From Gammaproteobacteria bacterium (GTDB taxonomy: Bacteria > Pseudomonadota > Gammaproteobacteria > SG8-11): 64,000 nucleotides of DNA. The notes under the pieces were generated by a model. That model was not told where the DNA came from. It saw only the letters and a list, made by a program, of their open reading frames with translations, and ran no database searches. The position numbers were made by a program, and so were the translations under genes. Of the stretch, positions 3,239 to 12,433 are shown one piece after another (the first letter of the stretch is position 1; every line of letters starts with the position of its first letter). The stretch spans positions 11,502 to 75,501 of the forward strand of contig JAHECY010000005.1 in the NCBI GenBank assembly GCA_024641505.1. Reading direction: 5' to 3'.

Positions 3239-4435
3239 TTAGAACTGTATATTCAGATGGGCGCTGGCTCCAGTTACACCCCGGCCATTTTCAATCGCCA
3301 CATCCAGACGATGCCCTCCGATATCGATACCGCCACCGCCGGTGAATACCAACTCCTGTTCGCCGACAAGATTGACCTTCATCCCCGCGCGCAGGCTCAA
3401 ATGATCGCCGACGGCGACTTCACCGCCAAACGCCGCATAACGGCTGCGGCCGACAAAAGCGACTTCAGGGTTAGAGGTCAAGTCCACGTCCACGACGAAA
3501 GTGCGCTCCTTGCGTTCATACGCCAATCCGACGCGCGCCTGAGGATTCACCACCACCCGCTCACTGCCGTCTGAAATGTACCGGAATGACATGGGCAACA
3601 AATTGCGCACGGCAAATCCCAGGGTGGTGAAACGGCTGAACTCCTTAAGCACGCCCACATCCACATTGAACGCGGAATTATCGTTGGCCTCACTGGCCGT
3701 CAGCACTACGTTGCTGGACGCGCTGCTGATTGGTTCCCGATACAATGTGGAACTTACCAACAACAACTTGGGCACGAATCCAACCACGACGTTATCGATC
3801 AAGCCCAACAACGAAAGGCGGTATTGCGCAAATCCGACTCCATGTTCGGTAACATCCATGGCTCTCTTCTCCACGTAGGAGTTCACTTGCACCCGTGTCG
3901 GGTCGGAGGCGTCAACCACTATGCGCTGCCCGCGAAACTTGTCCTGCAGTAGATACAAACCACCGCCGAAAACATCACTGGGCACCGTGGCCACCAGGGC
4001 GGAAAATTGATGATGCGTGCTGGTTTTGTCGCTTAAGCCCAACAATTTGTTCGCCGCAGGATTGGCCTGGTAAGCATCCAATGATCCCGCGAAGTCGTTC
4101 ACATCCATTTGCTGCCACCCGATACTGGGCAAACTCAAACTCCAGTCCACGAACTCACGCGCTCGACCCGCCAGCGCCATGTTCTGTACTGCGGCATAGC
4201 GATCTGACAACGCCACGGCCGCACCCCCCATGGCAGCCGCGCGCGGATCGTAGACGCCATAAGGCATCGCCAGCAAACGCAGTGGCGCGCATAACAGCAG
4301 CGCCGCCAAGATCCAGTGACCACCGGCGCCCCAACCCAGCGCTTGCCGTGATAGCGACGCAGACGCCAGTCGTCCGCACTTTTCTGTTACTTTATGGATT
4401 CTGCGCATCGGGGCTATCGACCTATTTGATTTCAC
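3239..4435 (-). CDS. TraF_2/FadL-like outer-membrane beta-barrel protein
   Basis: Mature N-terminus YDPRAAAMGGAAVA (DxRxxAMGG plug motif of TraF_2/PorV/FadL-like barrels), beta-strand pattern and C-terminal LNIQF; true start may lie downstream. Confidence 0.65.
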   Translation of the reverse strand: MKSNRSIAPMRRIHKVTEKCGRLASASLSRQALGWGAGGHWILAALLLCAPLRLLAMPYGVYDPRAAAMGGAAVALSDRYAAVQNMALAGRAREFVDWSLSLPSIGWQQMDVNDFAGSLDAYQANPAANKLLGLSDKTSTHHQFSALVATVPSDVFGGGLYLLQDKFRGQRIVVDASDPTRVQVNSYVEKRAMDVTEHGVGFAQYRLSLLGLIDNVVVGFVPKLLLVSSTLYREPISSASSNVVLTASEANDNSAFNVDVGVLKEFSRFTTLGFAVRNLLPMSFRYISDGSERVVVNPQARVGLAYERKERTFVVDVDLTSNPEVAFVGRSRYAAFGGEVAVGDHLSLRAGMKVNLVGEQELVFTGGGGIDIGGHRLDVAIENGRGVTGASAHLNIQF

Positions 4436-5309
4436 TCACCAGATTTTGTGCCATGGTTTGCGCCTGACCGAGATACGACGCGCCAAACAGATTGACGTGA
4501 TTTAGAATATGATAAAGATTGTATAACACCTTGCGCAGCCGGTACCCGTCATCCACGGGGTAGGCTTCATGATAAACCCGGTAAAAAGATGCGCCAAATC
4601 CACCAAACAATTCAGTCATCGCCAGATCCGCTTCCCGATCACCATAGTACACCGCGGGATCAAACACCACCGGCTCGTCATTCACGAAACCATAATTACC
4701 GGACCACAAATCGCCATGCAACAAACTCGGGACCGGTGTGTAGCCTGCGAACAGGGCGCCAAGATTGGTCATCAAGAACTCAATCGTAGACCGCAGCCGG
4801 TGCTCACTGCCGGTGCGTTGCATCAGCTGCAGCTGAAATCCCAGGCGGCGGTCCCGCCAGAACTCCAACCAATTGTCATTCGCTGTATTTACTTGCGGTG
4901 TCGATCCAATCGTATTATCCCGATACCAACCAAAGTGTTGCCCATGGATCCGATGCATGGCCGCAAGCTGGCGCGCCAGGAACACCATGCCCCGATCATC
5001 ATGTCTGCGCGTCAATGGTAAGTATTCCAGCACGATATAGGCGGTACCGCCGGCCTGGCCAAAGCACAACGGTTGCGGTACGCGCAAGGTCGCACTAGCG
5101 GCGATTTCGTTGAGTCCCGCGAATTCCGCGGCGAACATTTCGACAAAGCGCTCATGATTACGCTTAACAAAGTAACGAATACCGGCATGCTCGACAAGGT
5201 AACTGTCATTAATGCTGCCCCCTGTCAAAGGCGTCAGCCCAACGGCAGCAAAATGCCGACCAGAGGCAGCGGTGATATGTTCCGATATCTTATTCCAGGC
5301 AATATCCAT
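4422..5309 (-). CDS. Fructosamine kinase family protein (YniA-like)
   Basis: GGSIN, YFVK, FGWYRDNTIGSTPQ, LLHGDLWSGN and DPAVYYGDREADLAMTELFGGF motifs. Confidence 0.93.
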   Translation of the reverse strand: MDIAWNKISEHITAASGRHFAAVGLTPLTGGSINDSYLVEHAGIRYFVKRNHERFVEMFAAEFAGLNEIAASATLRVPQPLCFGQAGGTAYIVLEYLPLTRRHDDRGMVFLARQLAAMHRIHGQHFGWYRDNTIGSTPQVNTANDNWLEFWRDRRLGFQLQLMQRTGSEHRLRSTIEFLMTNLGALFAGYTPVPSLLHGDLWSGNYGFVNDEPVVFDPAVYYGDREADLAMTELFGGFGASFYRVYHEAYPVDDGYRLRKVLYNLYHILNHVNLFGASYLGQAQTMAQNLVSEIK

Positions 5310-5343: not shown

Positions 5344-5540
5344 CTGTGTGGACTAAATCCGTTAACGAAAGCTTGCCGAGACCTTACGCCGTGAGAGCGT
5401 ACGGACGGCAAATTCCTTCACTCATTATTATTCTTATTAATCATGCAATTACAGAGAACTGCAAATAATTAACATCATGTATCTTTGCTAACTGATAAGG
5501 ATATAACTCAATGCGTTAATGTGTATAACTGCCGGCCCCA

Positions 5541-5575
5541 TAAAAAAAGCCGGCCATCATGGCCGGCTTTCTTTT
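5541..5575 (-). terminator. Rho-independent terminator of the cytochrome c gene (possibly bidirectional)
   Basis: AAAGCCGGCCA-TCA-TGGCCGGCTTT hairpin flanked by an A7 tract and a T-rich tract, about 20 nt past the stop at 5596. Confidence 0.9.
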
Positions 5576-5595
5576 AGTACCTGTGTATTCTGGAA

Positions 5596-5934
5596 TTATT
5601 TGCCCAGAGACAGTACGAATTCAACCAGACCTTCGATGTCGGCATCAGCTACACGGGGGGAGTAGGGAGGCATTGGCACTTCGCCCCATACGCCTTTACC
5701 ACCGGCTTTAACTTTGGCTACCAAGCGGGCTTTTTCGTCTTTGCCTTTGTACTTGTTACCAACGTCCTGCCAAGCAGGACCAACAACTTTCTTTTCGATG
5801 CTGTGGCAAGCCAAGCAACCGCTTTTCTTGGCCAGTTCCAGTGCCGCAGCTTGATCCATGGCTGCATTAGCCTGGCCAGCCATCATCATAACCGCTGCTG
5901 CGGGAACTGCGATCCAACGTAATTTCATTTTCAA
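5596..5934 (-). CDS. Class I monoheme cytochrome c (c551/c552-like)
   Basis: Signal peptide, CLACH heme motif, VVGPAW, and distal Met in GVWGEVPMPP. Confidence 0.93.
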   Translation of the reverse strand: MKMKLRWIAVPAAAVMMMAGQANAAMDQAAALELAKKSGCLACHSIEKKVVGPAWQDVGNKYKGKDEKARLVAKVKAGGKGVWGEVPMPPYSPRVADADIEGLVEFVLSLGK

Positions 5935-6939: not shown

Positions 6940-9645
6940 ATGTTTACTGAAAAAAAATTTGTACTGGTCGACGGCTCATCATACCTGTATCGAGCCTTTC
7001 ATGCCTTGCCGCCCCTGACCACCGCCAAGGGTCAGGCCACCGGCGCGGTTTATGGTGTCATCAACATGTTACGCCGGCTGCTCCTGGACCAGGCTCCTGA
7101 CTACATGGCGGTGGTATTCGATGCCAAGGGGAAAACTTTTCGTCATGACCTGTATGACCAGTACAAAGCGAATCGCCCGCCGATGCCCGATGATCTGCGC
7201 AGCCAGATCGAGCCTCTACACGAAATCATCGAAGCCATGGGAATTCCCCTGCTGGTGGTCGAAGGCGTAGAAGCGGATGACGTTATTGGCACACTGGCCC
7301 GTCAGGGCGAAGCACATGGCATGCGAACCCTCATTTCCACCGGCGACAAGGACATGGCCCAGCTGGTTGACGACCATGTCACCCTCATCAATACCATGAC
7401 CAATACGGTGACCGATACTGCGGGGGTACGCGAGAAGTACGGCGTGACTCCGGAGCAGATCGTGGACTATCTGACACTGGTGGGCGACACGTCCGATAAT
7501 ATTCCGGGAGTCCCCAAGGTCGGCCCGAAGACCGCCAGCAAGTGGTTGCAGGATTACGGCAGCCTGGATGAGGTAGTGGCGCACGCCGCTGACATCAAAG
7601 GAAAAATCGGCGAACATCTCCGCGCCGCACTCGATCAACTGCCGTTGTCCCGCGTTCTGGCTACGATCAAGTGCAACGTGCCGCTCGCGGTCACGCCGGA
7701 ACAGCTGTCATTGTCGCCGCCGGAACAAAGCCGGCTCGGCGCGTTGTTCACACAGTTGGAATTCAATACCTGGTTAGCTGAACTTAGCGCTCAGCCTGCC
7801 CCGCCGACAATGGCGCCAACGCAGGCCACCGCATCAACGGTGACCTATGAAACGATTCTCAGTCAAGTGGATTTCGAGCGCTGGCTGCAACGTCTCGCGC
7901 GCGCCGAGCTGATTGCTTTCGATACCGAAACCACCAGCCTGGATTACATGGAAGCGCAAATCGTCGGCGTTTCTTTTGCGGTGACGCCAGGCCACGCCGC
8001 TTATGTGCCGCTGGCACACGATTACGCCGGTGCCCCGCAACAACTGGCGCGGCATGAGGTACTGAATGCGCTCAAACCGCTGCTCGAAGATCCGCAACGC
8101 TTGCTGCTCGGGCAAAACCTGAAGTATGACATGAATGTACTGGCCAACTACGACATTCACCCGGCGGGCATTCACCACGACACGATGCTGCAATCCTACG
8201 TACTCAACAGCACCGGCAGTCGTCATGACATGGACACCCTGGCACTGAAGCACCTGAACCGGCACACGGTGCATTACGAAGACATCGCCGGTAAAGGGGC
8301 TAAACAGATCACCTTTAATGAAATTGATATCGACACTGCAGCACACTATGCTGCCGAGGACGCCGATGTCACTCTGTGCCTGCACCAGGCGCTGTGGCCC
8401 AAATTGCAACAGGAACCGTTGCTGCAACACGTGTATGAAGCCATCGAAATCCCCTTGATTCCGGTATTGTCCCGCGTGGAACGCAACGGCGTGCTGGTCG
8501 ATGCGCGAAAACTTGAGGAGCAAAGCCGGGAGATCAGCGCCAAGCTGATCGTCCTGGAAGACCAGGCTTATCAACTGGCCGGCGGGATGTTCAATCTGGG
8601 ATCACCGAAACAGATTCAGGAAATCCTGTTCGAGAAACTGGGCCTGCCGGTACTGCAAAAAACGCCGAAAGGCCAGCCCTCGACCGCGGAAGGGGTATTA
8701 CAGGAATTGGCGCTGGACTACCCGCTGCCACGGGTCATCATGGACCACCGTGGCCTCAGCAAGCTGCGCTCTACCTACACCGACCGCCTGCCGGAGCAGA
8801 TCAATCCGGGTACCGGCCGCGTGCACACCTCCTACCATCAGGCGATAGCCTCCACGGGGCGCCTGTCTTCCAGCGATCCAAACCTGCAAAATATTCCGAT
8901 TCGCACCGAGGAAGGACGCCGTATCCGGCAGGCATTCGTGGCGGCTCCCGGATACAGGATTCTGGCCGCCGATTATTCGCAGATTGAATTGCGCATCCTG
9001 GCCCATTTGTCGGAAGATGCCGGTCTGTTACAGGCATTTGCCCAGGGCGCCGACATTCACCGCGCCACCGCCGCCGATGTGTTCAATACCACCCCTGACC
9101 GTGTCAGCACCGAGCAGCGACGCAGCGCCAAAGCCATTAATTTTGGCCTGGTGTATGGCATGTCCGCCTTCGGCCTGGCAAAGCAGTTAGGCGTTGACCG
9201 CGGCACCGCCCAGGAATACATCAATATGTATTTCGCACGTTATCCGGGCGTGAAACTCTTCATGGACCGTACCCGCGACCTGGCCCGTGCACAAGGTTAT
9301 GTCTCCACGGTATGTGGACGGCGCTTGTACCTGCCGGAAATCAACTCCCGTAACGCACAGCGCCGCCAATACGCCGAGCGCACGGCCATCAATGCGCCCA
9401 TGCAAGGTACCGCCGCGGACATTATCAAGTTGGCCATGATCGCGACTGACCAGTGGTTAACGCAAGAAAACATCAACGCACGCATGATCATGCAAGTACA
9501 CGATGAGCTGGTATTTGAGGTCGCAACCTCTGCCGTGGACACACTGCGGGAGCAAGTCAGCGCGCTCATGAGCGGTGTACTGCAACTAAACGTGCCGTTG
9601 GTGGTCGACGCCGGTGTTGGCGAAAACTGGGATCAGGCCCACTGA
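6940..9645 (+). CDS. polA: DNA polymerase I
   Basis: LVDGSSYLYRAFHALP 5'-3' exonuclease, AFDTETT 3'-5' exonuclease, ADYSQIELR, KAINFGLVYGMS and QVHDELVFE. Confidence 0.99.
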   Translation: MFTEKKFVLVDGSSYLYRAFHALPPLTTAKGQATGAVYGVINMLRRLLLDQAPDYMAVVFDAKGKTFRHDLYDQYKANRPPMPDDLRSQIEPLHEIIEAMGIPLLVVEGVEADDVIGTLARQGEAHGMRTLISTGDKDMAQLVDDHVTLINTMTNTVTDTAGVREKYGVTPEQIVDYLTLVGDTSDNIPGVPKVGPKTASKWLQDYGSLDEVVAHAADIKGKIGEHLRAALDQLPLSRVLATIKCNVPLAVTPEQLSLSPPEQSRLGALFTQLEFNTWLAELSAQPAPPTMAPTQATASTVTYETILSQVDFERWLQRLARAELIAFDTETTSLDYMEAQIVGVSFAVTPGHAAYVPLAHDYAGAPQQLARHEVLNALKPLLEDPQRLLLGQNLKYDMNVLANYDIHPAGIHHDTMLQSYVLNSTGSRHDMDTLALKHLNRHTVHYEDIAGKGAKQITFNEIDIDTAAHYAAEDADVTLCLHQALWPKLQQEPLLQHVYEAIEIPLIPVLSRVERNGVLVDARKLEEQSREISAKLIVLEDQAYQLAGGMFNLGSPKQIQEILFEKLGLPVLQKTPKGQPSTAEGVLQELALDYPLPRVIMDHRGLSKLRSTYTDRLPEQINPGTGRVHTSYHQAIASTGRLSSSDPNLQNIPIRTEEGRRIRQAFVAAPGYRILAADYSQIELRILAHLSEDAGLLQAFAQGADIHRATAADVFNTTPDRVSTEQRRSAKAINFGLVYGMSAFGLAKQLGVDRGTAQEYINMYFARYPGVKLFMDRTRDLARAQGYVSTVCGRRLYLPEINSRNAQRRQYAERTAINAPMQGTAADIIKLAMIATDQWLTQENINARMIMQVHDELVFEVATSAVDTLREQVSALMSGVLQLNVPLVVDAGVGENWDQAH

Positions 9646-9703
9646 AGACGGCCGGCCGCCAACGGCCACGACGCACAGTTGCCACATACATGAACTTTTT
9701 TCA

Positions 9704-9730
9704 GAACTTTTTCCCAAAGCTCGCGTCAAA
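9704..9730 (+). promoter_or_regulatory. SigmaE (RpoE/AlgU) promoter
   Basis: Exact GAACTT-N16-TCAAA; a second GAACTT lies 12 nt upstream at 9692. Confidence 0.7.
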
Positions 9731-9735
9731 CGGGT

Positions 9736-9845
9736 TCTGTGTGTCTCCACAGCCCGTTTGGCCCCCCCGAACGGCGCTGTTCCCGGTCCCCTAAACCGGG
9801 TATTACTTCAACCCCCGGCTCACCCCTCTGGCCGGGGCTTTTTTA
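9736..9845 (+). ncRNA. Putative small RNA at the Spot42/ErsA syntenic position (polA-engB)
   Basis: About 110 nt between the sigmaE promoter and an intrinsic terminator; hairpins with C-rich loops; the 5' end is inferred. Confidence 0.6.
9811..9844 (+). terminator. Rho-independent terminator (sRNA/polA)
   Basis: CCCCGGC-11 nt loop-GCCGGGG followed by C and T6; the T tract overlaps the engB stop codon. Confidence 0.8.
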
Positions 9846-10439
9846 TGTTAACCACGACAACAGACGCGCCTCCAGGTCTTCGATGCCACTGTGGTCATGC
9901 GCGGAGAATAACTGCACGCTGGCATCCTGCCCAAGGGTCTTCAAGTGCTGCTGCGCTTTGAGCAGTGCGTTCTTGGCGCTGCCCCGGGTCAACTTGTCCG
10001 CCTTCGTCAGCAACACATGAACATCCAGCCGGTACTCGGCGCACCAGGCCAGCATCTGCTCATCGGAATCCTTGAAGGGGTGCCGTATGTCCATCACCAG
10101 CACCAAACCGCGCAGACTTTGCCGATGACTGAAGTAGTCCTCCAGCAGTCGATGCCACGCCAGTTTCTTCTGCGCAGATACTTTCGCGAAACCATATCCC
10201 GGTAAATCCACCAAACGTCGCCCGGATTGCCATTGGAAAAAATTCAAAAGTTGGGTGCGACCGGGTGTCTTGCTGGTCTTGGCCAATTTTTTATTGGCGG
10301 TCAATGTGTTGAGTGCACTGGATTTTCCTGCATTGGAGCGTCCGGCAAAAGCCACTTCAACACCCTCATCCCCTGGGGCCTGAAATAGTTGCGCGGCGCT
10401 CAGCATGAATTCCGTGGAATTAAATTTCCGAGAGCTCAC
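9843..10439 (-). CDS. engB: Ribosome biogenesis GTP-binding protein EngB/YihA
   Basis: [31 protein letters not shown] and TKADKL motifs. Confidence 0.98.
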
Positions 10440-11718: not shown

Positions 11719-11745
11719 GAACAAAGCGACGACCGCAAACTCTAA
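11719..11745 (+). promoter_or_regulatory. Possible sigmaE promoter of dsbA
   Basis: GAACAA-N16-TCTAA, 55 nt upstream of dsbA; the -35 matches only 4 of 6 positions. Confidence 0.35.
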
Positions 11746-11800: not shown

Positions 11801-12433
11801 ATGATAAACAAAGCATCAATACTCGCTGTGCTCATGCTCAGCTCGACCCTGCTTTCCGTCAGCGTTGGAGCAGCCGACTATATTGAGGGGAAGCACTATG
11901 AAGTCATCTCTCCGGCTCAGCCGACCAGTACCGGAGCCAAGGTGGAGGTACTGGAATTGTTCTGGTATGGCTGCCCCCATTGTTTCAACTTTGAGCCCTA
12001 CATTGTCAGGTGGTTAAAAACCAAGTCGCCACAAATCGAATTTGTGCGGATGCCCGGAATTCTCCGACCCGAATGGGCATTGTACGCACGGGCATATTAC
12101 ACCGCTGAAGTCCTGGGTGTTCTGGACAAAATCCACGAACCGCTGTTTGAAGTCATTCACGAACTGCGTCAACCACCCAAGGATGAAGCGGCACTCAAAG
12201 GCTTTTTTAAGGAACATGGCGTATCTGAAGAGGACTTCACCAAGACCTTTCGTTCCTTCACGGTGGAGAGCAAAGTACGCAGAGCCCAGGACATGAGCCA
12301 ACGCTATGGTGCCAGCGGTGTTCCCACCATGATAATCAATGGCAAATATCGCACCAGCGGCTCATTGAGTGGCGGGCCCGCAGATGTATTGAAGGTCGTC
12401 GACTACCTGGCGCAAAAAGAGGAAAAAAAATAG
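11801..12433 (+). CDS. dsbA: Thiol:disulfide interchange protein DsbA
   Basis: Signal peptide, ELFWYGCPHC and cis-Pro GVPTMIINGKY. Confidence 0.97.
   Translation: MINKASILAVLMLSSTLLSVSVGAADYIEGKHYEVISPAQPTSTGAKVEVLELFWYGCPHCFNFEPYIVRWLKTKSPQIEFVRMPGILRPEWALYARAYYTAEVLGVLDKIHEPLFEVIHELRQPPKDEAALKGFFKEHGVSEEDFTKTFRSFTVESKVRRAQDMSQRYGASGVPTMIINGKYRTSGSLSGGPADVLKVVDYLAQKEEKK

Follow-up and report, generated by a model that had tools for sequence, protein, structure and literature searches.

We examined a 64,000-nucleotide (nt) window of contig JAHECY010000005.1 from a sediment gammaproteobacterium (the window being this whole stretch of DNA) and found that the 197-nt gap between its polA and engB genes very probably holds a genuine small RNA (sRNA) gene. 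The complete proposal, which we favor with some reserve, is an independent gene for a trans-acting sRNA of ~108 nt that would be driven by sigmaE/AlgU and whose C-rich loops would pair with G-rich ribosome-binding sites. The comparisons described below show in part, as far as sequence relationships can indicate, that this RNA is a divergent member of a widespread sRNA family located at the 3' end of engB and including ErsA and anti-hemB/ncS04. A sequence-only reading of the same DNA had previously placed a sigmaE-dependent sRNA between polA and engB, and this location is borne out by the list of open reading frames (ORFs) and by Pfam. The feature it described was confirmed, and its interpretation stood up in each part open to computation. 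The elements of the predicted gene are given below in window coordinates; L006, L009, and L012 are related loci.

9692-9697, forward strand: second GAACTT, 12 nt 5' of the main -35 box; pairing over N16 leads to CCAAA (9714-9718)
9704-9709, forward strand: -35 box GAACTT of the sigmaE/AlgU type, exact consensus, its GAAC unchanged when aligned to L006, L009, and L012
9726-9730, forward strand: -10 box TCAAA, 16 nt past the -35 box, read directly
9737-9844, forward strand: predicted sRNA of ~108 nt, with its start placed 6-8 nt past the -10 box and its end at the U-tract
9737-9752, forward strand: 5' tail with UCUCC (9744-9748), unpaired in the minimum-energy fold or in a weak hairpin CUGUG/CACAG with a UCUC loop
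9753-9775, forward strand: predicted hairpin 1, stem CCGUUUGG/CCGAACGG (9754-9761/9767-9774), loop CCCCC (9762-9766)
9782-9800, forward strand: predicted hairpin 2, stem CCCGGU/ACCGGG (9782-9787/9795-9800), loop CCCCUAA
9801-9812, forward strand: A/U-rich linker UAUUACUUCAAC, single-stranded in the fold, preceding the terminator
9813-9844, forward strand: predicted hairpin 3, an intrinsic terminator with stem CCCCGGC/GCCGGGG (9813-9819/9831-9837) and loop UCACCCCUCUG, followed by C and U6 (9839-9844), from the fold and direct reading

The RNA at 9737-9845 folds at -44.7 kcal/mol compared to -31.5 +/- 3.2 kcal/mol for shuffled sequences (z = -4.15), and none of the 200 shuffles was as stable; the corresponding z values of its relatives range from -3.9 to -7.4. 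Each of the three hairpins is shown in the model fold to present a run of C residues in its loop. The hairpins, C-rich loops, and U-tract noted in the sequence-only reading were recovered at the positions it gave, but the UCUCC motif that it had counted among the loops lies in the 5' tail, and an extra hairpin with a CCCCC loop is present. The UCUCC of the tail is a candidate seed in this fold, and (A/G)UCUCC occurs at the same place in L006 and L009. The A/U-rich linker, whose motif ...GUU(C/G)A... is kept in the relatives and in the published sRNA ncS04, is a possible Hfq site, binding being inferred only. A simple terminator scanner picked the middle hairpin and missed the 3' one; because the loop of the latter exceeds the 8-nt limit of the scanner, the terminator call rests on the fold and on direct reading.

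Promoter of the predicted sRNA gene

The exact GAACTT-N16-TCAAA promoter claimed from the sequence was located at 9704-9730, and the coordinate 9692 from which the earlier annotation began corresponds to the second GAACTT. The pattern GAACTT-N15-17-TCAAA has a single match on both strands of the 64-kb window, whereas dinucleotide-preserving shuffles gave on average 0.02 matches, with at least one match in 2 of 100 shuffles. Only the box at 9704 aligns with the relatives; the GAACTT at 9692 does not, and is possibly a weaker secondary -35 box or start, or a piece of a T-rich upstream element. In the relatives, the -10 variants TCGAA, TCCTA, TCTGA, TCTTA, and TCAGA occur at the same spacing. No sigma70-like promoter was found near the sRNA in this region of the window.

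The promoter test across related loci was independent of the motif, in that the loci were picked by the EngB protein and the RNA was located with a core model that excludes the promoter. GAACT-N-N15-17-TCNNA was present within ~110 nt upstream in 32 of the 42 RNA matches with enough upstream sequence, against a background of 0.0055 per equal-size window over 1.02 Mb, an enrichment of ~140-fold. Most of the matches without a box carry near-misses such as GAACCT..TCGAA and GGAACTA..TCAAT. The recurrence of the motif suggests that sigmaE/AlgU is likely to drive transcription of the sRNA.

Two loci carry a conserved sigma70-like extended -10 element ~100 nt upstream of the sRNA core, on the minus strand of the loci: L018 (~4400-4440) and L020 (~4290-4330), with the sequences TGGTCTAGAAT / TGGTCTAGTAT. 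L018, which has no good sigmaE box, may produce a longer or differently driven transcript.

Conservation of the unit at the 3' end of engB

All related loci were fetched through the EngB protein only, and the selection was blind to the RNA. The protein database provided EngB relatives with 80%, 74%, and ~60-63% identity, whose contigs were used, and a scan of metagenomes provided 80 further EngB loci with 53-63% identity. An EngB scan of the species-genome collection returned five relatives only (55-60% identity), with polA beside engB in none of them and no Rfam hit.

The two nearest relatives, L006 and L009, together with L012, have the same convergent polA/engB gap as the window, and in each of them it contains GAAC(T/C)T-N16-TC(G/C)(A/T)A, (A/G)UCUCC, C-rich-loop hairpins, and a terminator that directly adjoins the stop codon of engB. 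Among the loci with at least 60 nt past engB, which come from diverse marine, sediment, and soil Gammaproteobacteria, 52 of 85 have, on the strand that converges with engB, a sigmaE-type box and then a hairpin with a U-tract; the interval is 90-135 nt in nearly all of these 52.

The sRNA is linked to engB rather than to polA. Where other genes (those for a TonB-dependent receptor, a peptidase M90, and others) lie between engB and polA, the sRNA stays on the engB side (L013, L019, L028, L031, L060, and L100), and ~15 loci in which engB and polA overlap or are at most 30 nt apart (L016, L024, L025, L027, and others) have no sRNA. In some loci, the unit is separated from engB by as much as 130-1200 nt. 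Two tandem sRNA units were observed in L083 (3144-3253 and 3400-3496), L063 (1655-1753 and 1833-1933), and L060, each with a terminator of its own and, as far as can be seen, a separate sigmaE-type box.

The unit of Halioglobus japonicus CP019450.1 is located at ~555,800-555,965 on the minus strand (L019 4572-4720). A stretch of ~400 nt with long inverted repeats (L019 ~4170-4560), which may be an inserted repeat element, lies there between the engB stop codon and the sRNA terminator.

Covariance models and covariation

MAFFT gave hairpin 1 three registers and RNAalifold then lost that helix, and the structure was set by hand. The seed of the first covariance model, R1, consisted of the three-hairpin core of the window RNA, nine relatives, and the published Burkholderia cenocepacia ncS04. 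Searched over 1 Mb, R1 matched the window RNA with 73 bits (9747-9845) and several non-seed loci with 54-68 bits. The second model, R2, was seeded with 15 unnamed loci only, containing no ErsA and no Burkholderia sequence, and matched the window RNA over the same interval (9747-9845) with 70 bits. All 51 R2 hits with E < 0.01 are beside engB on the convergent strand, and the first off-target hit appears at E = 0.013. A weak family-model match elsewhere in the window (5540-5676, minus strand, 15-18 bits) was rejected as a false positive, since it corresponds to nothing more than the terminator AAAGCCGGCC...GGCCGGCTTTTTTT that follows a cytochrome c gene.

The covariation check across relatives suggested by the sequence-only reading was run, and the hairpins covary: once the 15 top-scoring sequences had been realigned to the model, 16 of the 20 modelled pairs were changed on both sides (6/6 in helix 1, 5/6 in helix 2, and 5/8 in helix 3). 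In these 15 sequences, 85.7% of the pairing cells can pair, compared to 74.8% after shuffling. The covariation score was 0.42 versus 0.21 for shuffled alignments, 0 of 500 of which reached it, and was at most 0.13 when the partners were slid by 1-3 columns. The C runs of the loops are kept while the stems vary, loop 1 being of the CCUCCC type and loop 2 following CCCC(A/U)A(A/G).

Comparison with named sRNA families

At gathering thresholds, Rfam identified zero RNA families in the whole 64-kb window, tRNA included. The recommended search for Spot 42 and ErsA, run with permissive Rfam thresholds on 9600-9900, found neither at E <= 10. The best match to the window RNA was the anti-hemB family (RF02837) with 30.4 bits and E = 1.8e-5, below its gathering score of 49.5, and the weaker matches were to other sRNAs with C-rich loops. 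The anti-hemB model also scored the relatives L006, L009, L018, and L020 at 29-38 bits, L039 at 44 bits, and L083 at 54.5 bits, the last of these above the 49.5 cut-off.

The Burkholderia anti-hemB sRNA, ncS04, aligns hairpin for hairpin with the window RNA and shares with it the CCUCCC-type first loop, the GUU(G/C)A linker, and the CCCCGG...CCGGGG terminator. It is likewise convergent with the 3' end of engB, lying between BCAL0264 (hemB) and BCAL0265 (engB) in the order <- -> <-; its other neighbor, however, is hemB rather than polA, and its second loop is U-rich, whereas that of the window RNA is C-rich. Transcription of ncS04 was demonstrated by transcription start site mapping, Northern blotting, and rapid amplification of cDNA 3' ends, and the RNA binds Hfq (PMC5688073); its expression was unchanged in the stresses tested (PMC5688073). 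By sequence and predicted structure, anti-hemB/ncS04 is the nearest curated family.

ErsA of Pseudomonas resembles the window RNA in its position in the polA-engB gap, in the same strand arrangement, and in the extended synteny dsbA - cytochrome c - engB - sRNA - polA, as well as in a sigmaE/AlgU-type box at the same distance. The 3' modules are similar, in that a CCCUA(G)-loop hairpin leads via a linker into a terminator whose loop is CCCCUCCCC; stem-loops SL2 and SL3 of ErsA align with hairpins 2 and 3, and the U-rich domain of ErsA stands in place of hairpin 1. This long unstructured domain (AUGCUCCUAUGUUGUGUUAAGUGUUGGCAG) between SL1 and SL2 is absent from the window RNA, and the published length of ErsA is 132 nt (PMC5819304) versus ~108 nt for the window RNA. 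ErsA is sigma22-dependent (PMC8575079, PMC5819304), and it binds its targets via the U-rich domain and needs Hfq (PMC8575079). Three true ErsA loci in our set (L089, L093, and L097) scored 135-140 bits with the Rfam model Pseudomon-1/ErsA (RF01719; gathering score 50), and fourteen further soil and rhizosphere loci are nearly identical to them in ErsA sequence. When a start 6 nt past the -10 box and an end at the U-tract were assumed, these ErsA loci gave lengths of 128-132 nt (130-132 nt in all but one), in comparison with the published 132 nt (PMC5819304). The ErsA-free model R2 matched 17 of 17 ErsA loci with 30-37 bits, at roughly calibrated E-values of ~1e-6 to 8e-5 in 1 Mb. The comparison with ErsA is thus stronger than the earlier suggestion of a positional analogue: because of the shared synteny and the detection by an ErsA-free model, the window RNA is probably a distant homologue of ErsA and not only its positional analogue, although convergence of the terminators is an alternative explanation for the R2 match.

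The sX13 RNA of the Xanthomonadaceae (RF02232) combines an unstructured 5' end with three CCCC/CCCCC stem-loops, is encoded downstream of polA, and accumulates under salt and heat (PMC3771888). The window RNA has all of the corresponding features, namely polA upstream, a 5' end without structure, and three stem-loops that present CCCC at their apices, and the loop-2 consensus of sX13, CUCCCCAAG, is the hairpin-2 loop of the group to which the window RNA belongs. The sX13 model matched the relatives L033, L079, and L022 with 33.4, 30.9, and 28.4 bits, all below the cut-off of 50. Differences are the downstream neighbor, a hypothetical gene instead of engB, and the promoter, the type of which is unreported in PMC3771888. 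sX13 represses its targets via G-rich motifs at the ribosome-binding site independently of Hfq, its loops being active and its 5' region dispensable (PMC3771888). By analogy, sX13 rather than ErsA is the best functional model for C-rich loops acting on G-rich ribosome-binding sites. The sX13 study raised the question of sRNA genes beside polA in other bacteria (PMC3771888).

Spot 42 (spf; RF00021) of the Enterobacterales and Vibrionales, which is repressed by cAMP-CRP (as cited in PMC3771888), resembles the window RNA in position only, with polA, the sRNA, and convergent engB/yihA. It has no C-rich loops and regulates carbon metabolism. Membership in this family was rejected: the Spot 42 model had no match at E <= 10 on the window, and in the reverse direction R1 gave 13 bits on E. 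coli spf and R2 listed nothing.

The enterobacterial and Vibrio sRNAs MicA, RybB, MicL, and VrrA have promoters of the GGAACTT-N16-TCAAA type and are regarded as the repressing side of the response to envelope stress. They target the mRNAs of outer-membrane proteins and lpp with single-stranded seeds at their 5' ends. They are unrelated to the window RNA in sequence, position, and architecture.

In summary of these likenesses, the window RNA is sX13-like in its putative action, ErsA-like in its putative regulation, and anti-hemB-like in sequence; because it is below the curated score of each, it was not assigned to any of the three. We found no paper in the literature library searched that names ErsA together with sX13, ncS04, or Pseudomon-1. 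Sequence relationships suggest that sX13 probably belongs to the same engB-3'-end family as ErsA and anti-hemB/ncS04. The broader proposition that ErsA, the anti-hemB/ncS04 RNAs of the Burkholderiales, sX13, and the unnamed RNAs constitute one ancient family at the 3' end of engB, with a sigmaE/AlgU-type promoter and C-rich loops, has in our estimate an even chance of being correct. The intermediate sequences support a single family, the alternative being convergence on terminators with C-rich loops.

Genomic context

The predicted sRNA is flanked by the following genes:

6940-9645, forward strand: polA, DNA polymerase I (901 amino acids), from the ORF list; Pfam DNA_pol_A and 5'-3' and 3'-5' exonuclease domains
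9843-10439, reverse strand: engB/yihA, ribosome-biogenesis GTPase (198 amino acids), from the ORF list and Pfam; convergent with the sRNA

The upstream neighbor, polA, is on the same strand as the sRNA, and the engB stop codon (TTA, 9843-9845) overlaps the sRNA U-tract. Sequence of this region was found only in sediment metagenomes. The sequence-only reading had described ~110 nt free of ORFs; the length is close to our ~108 nt, but the stretch is not literally ORF-free, three mechanical ORFs from the ORF list crossing it (9614-9961 and 9739-10020 on the forward strand and 9586-9750 on the reverse strand), although a coding role is still unsupported, as discussed below.

Proposed function and alternative explanations

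Under envelope stress, RpoE/AlgU would bind GAACTT-N16-TCAAA and start transcription near 9737, as the promoter type and the ErsA precedent suggest, and the hairpin and U-tract at 9813-9844 would stop it at the engB stop codon. The C-rich, anti-Shine-Dalgarno-like loops, perhaps together with the 5' UCUCC, would then pair with G-rich ribosome-binding regions as in sX13, and this pairing would lower the translation or stability of the target mRNAs. The sRNA would in this way add a post-transcriptional arm to the envelope-stress regulon. For the step of loop-mediated pairing with ribosome-binding sites, which is argued from the sX13 analogy, we lean only slightly toward acceptance.

Several points weigh against this proposal. 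The sigmaE dependence is read from the motif only. The window RNA reaches no Rfam gathering score, the ErsA and sX13 Rfam models have no match at E <= 10 on 9600-9900, and the RNA lacks the working U-rich single strand of ErsA. The alignment behind the covariation counts was itself fitted to the model, the E-values of our models are rough, and part of the cross-family score could come from G+C-rich terminators with C-rich loops, possibly convergent. Three metatranscriptomes of the same sample had no contig for the region, a result that is uninformative either way given that these datasets are small and the DNA depth of the organism is 3-12x. Finally, RNAduplex applied to the whole sRNA and 62 crude start regions of the window, with intramolecular structure ignored, gave meaningless long duplexes and identified no target, and is likewise uninformative.

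The strongest competitor accepts the sRNA and its sigmaE-type promoter but has the RNA act as ErsA, RybB, or MicA do, through Hfq and a single-stranded seed in the UCUCC tail or the A/U linker, the C-rich loops being structural or secondary. The tail that is unpaired in the minimum-energy fold, the (A/G)UCUCC kept in the nearest relatives, and the combination of an A/U-rich linker with a U6 terminator, the usual Hfq module, all fit this mode of action, as do the requirement of ErsA for Hfq and its use of a single-stranded domain (PMC8575079) and the binding of ncS04 to Hfq (PMC5688073). However, C runs persist in all three loops even among very divergent relatives whose stems differ, an unrelated hairpin replaces the 5' tail in the anti-hemB-like and Halieaceae-type members, and the loops of sX13 act without Hfq while its 5' region is dispensable (PMC3771888). 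We regard a seed-based mechanism as unlikely.

It is less likely again, and in our view improbable, that the element works mainly in cis, either by terminating the convergent transcription of polA and engB or by pairing as an antisense RNA with the 3' end of engB. The U-tract lies over the engB stop codon and the terminator is 1-20 nt from that codon in most relatives; moreover, no good terminator is visible directly after polA, so that polA read-through would end at the sRNA hairpin, and the hairpin has no U-tract on the engB strand, so that transcription of engB may continue across the sRNA gene in the antisense direction. A conserved promoter with constant spacing, three hairpins that covary, and loops of preserved sequence are, on the other hand, more than a simple terminator requires. 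The loci with an engB distance of 130-1200 nt and those with tandem copies also speak against a cis role, and the characterized relatives ErsA and sX13 act in trans.

A polA 3' untranslated region ending in a terminator, with a promoter match that arose by chance, would remove the need for a separate gene. The location directly downstream of polA on the same strand is compatible with this explanation, as is the absence of metatranscriptome contigs from the region, but chance would produce the box just 0.02 times in a window, its recurrence with unchanged spacing in relatives is ~140 times above background, and the unit persists where polA is not adjacent. The separate gene with a sigmaE-type promoter claimed earlier is thus supported by the box in 32 of 42 EngB-fetched loci and by its retention away from polA, and we consider an untranslated region very improbable. 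Least credible of all, with hardly any probability left to it, is a small protein such as the 93-amino-acid ORF at 9739-10020, or non-functional intergenic DNA: the mechanical ORFs do cross the stretch and a small protein, SpfP, has meanwhile been annotated in E. coli Spot 42, which occupies the same position, but the 93-amino-acid ORF has no Pfam match, its frame is broken by a stop in L009, its protein sequence is unconserved, relatives differ in the sRNA stretch by indels of lengths not divisible by three, the long ORF reads engB in the antisense direction, and conservation follows base pairs and not codons, leaving nothing in favor of a coding function.

SigmaE-like promoter upstream of dsbA

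A sigmaE-like box, GAACAA-N16-TCTAA, is located at 11719-11745 of the window on the forward strand, ~55 nt before dsbA (11801-12433). The possibility of such a box, raised in the sequence-only reading, is supported by conservation: the same kind of box precedes dsbA in the six distinct relatives checked (L006, L009, L012, L013, L015, and L019), in the forms GAACnn-N16/17-TCTnA or TCATA, the two nearest relatives having GGAACTA...TCTAT. Probably, therefore, dsbA and the sRNA belong to one regulon, as the sequence-only reading had supposed.

Significance for the organism and the sRNA family

The feature is ordinary in kind, real but not unprecedented, and its value is chiefly comparative. For this otherwise unstudied sediment gammaproteobacterium, the analysis provides a credible gene for a regulatory RNA and, in front of dsbA, another promoter of the sigmaE type. 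At the level of the family, the intermediate sequences connect three separately studied groups, ErsA, anti-hemB/ncS04, and sX13. If the single-family interpretation is true, this would be the most widely distributed envelope-stress sRNA of the Beta- and Gammaproteobacteria, now split over three unconnected Rfam families, which Rfam could join in a clan. The sigma22 regulation known for ErsA and the mechanism known for sX13 would then be transferable across the family, and ncS04 would gain a testable function.

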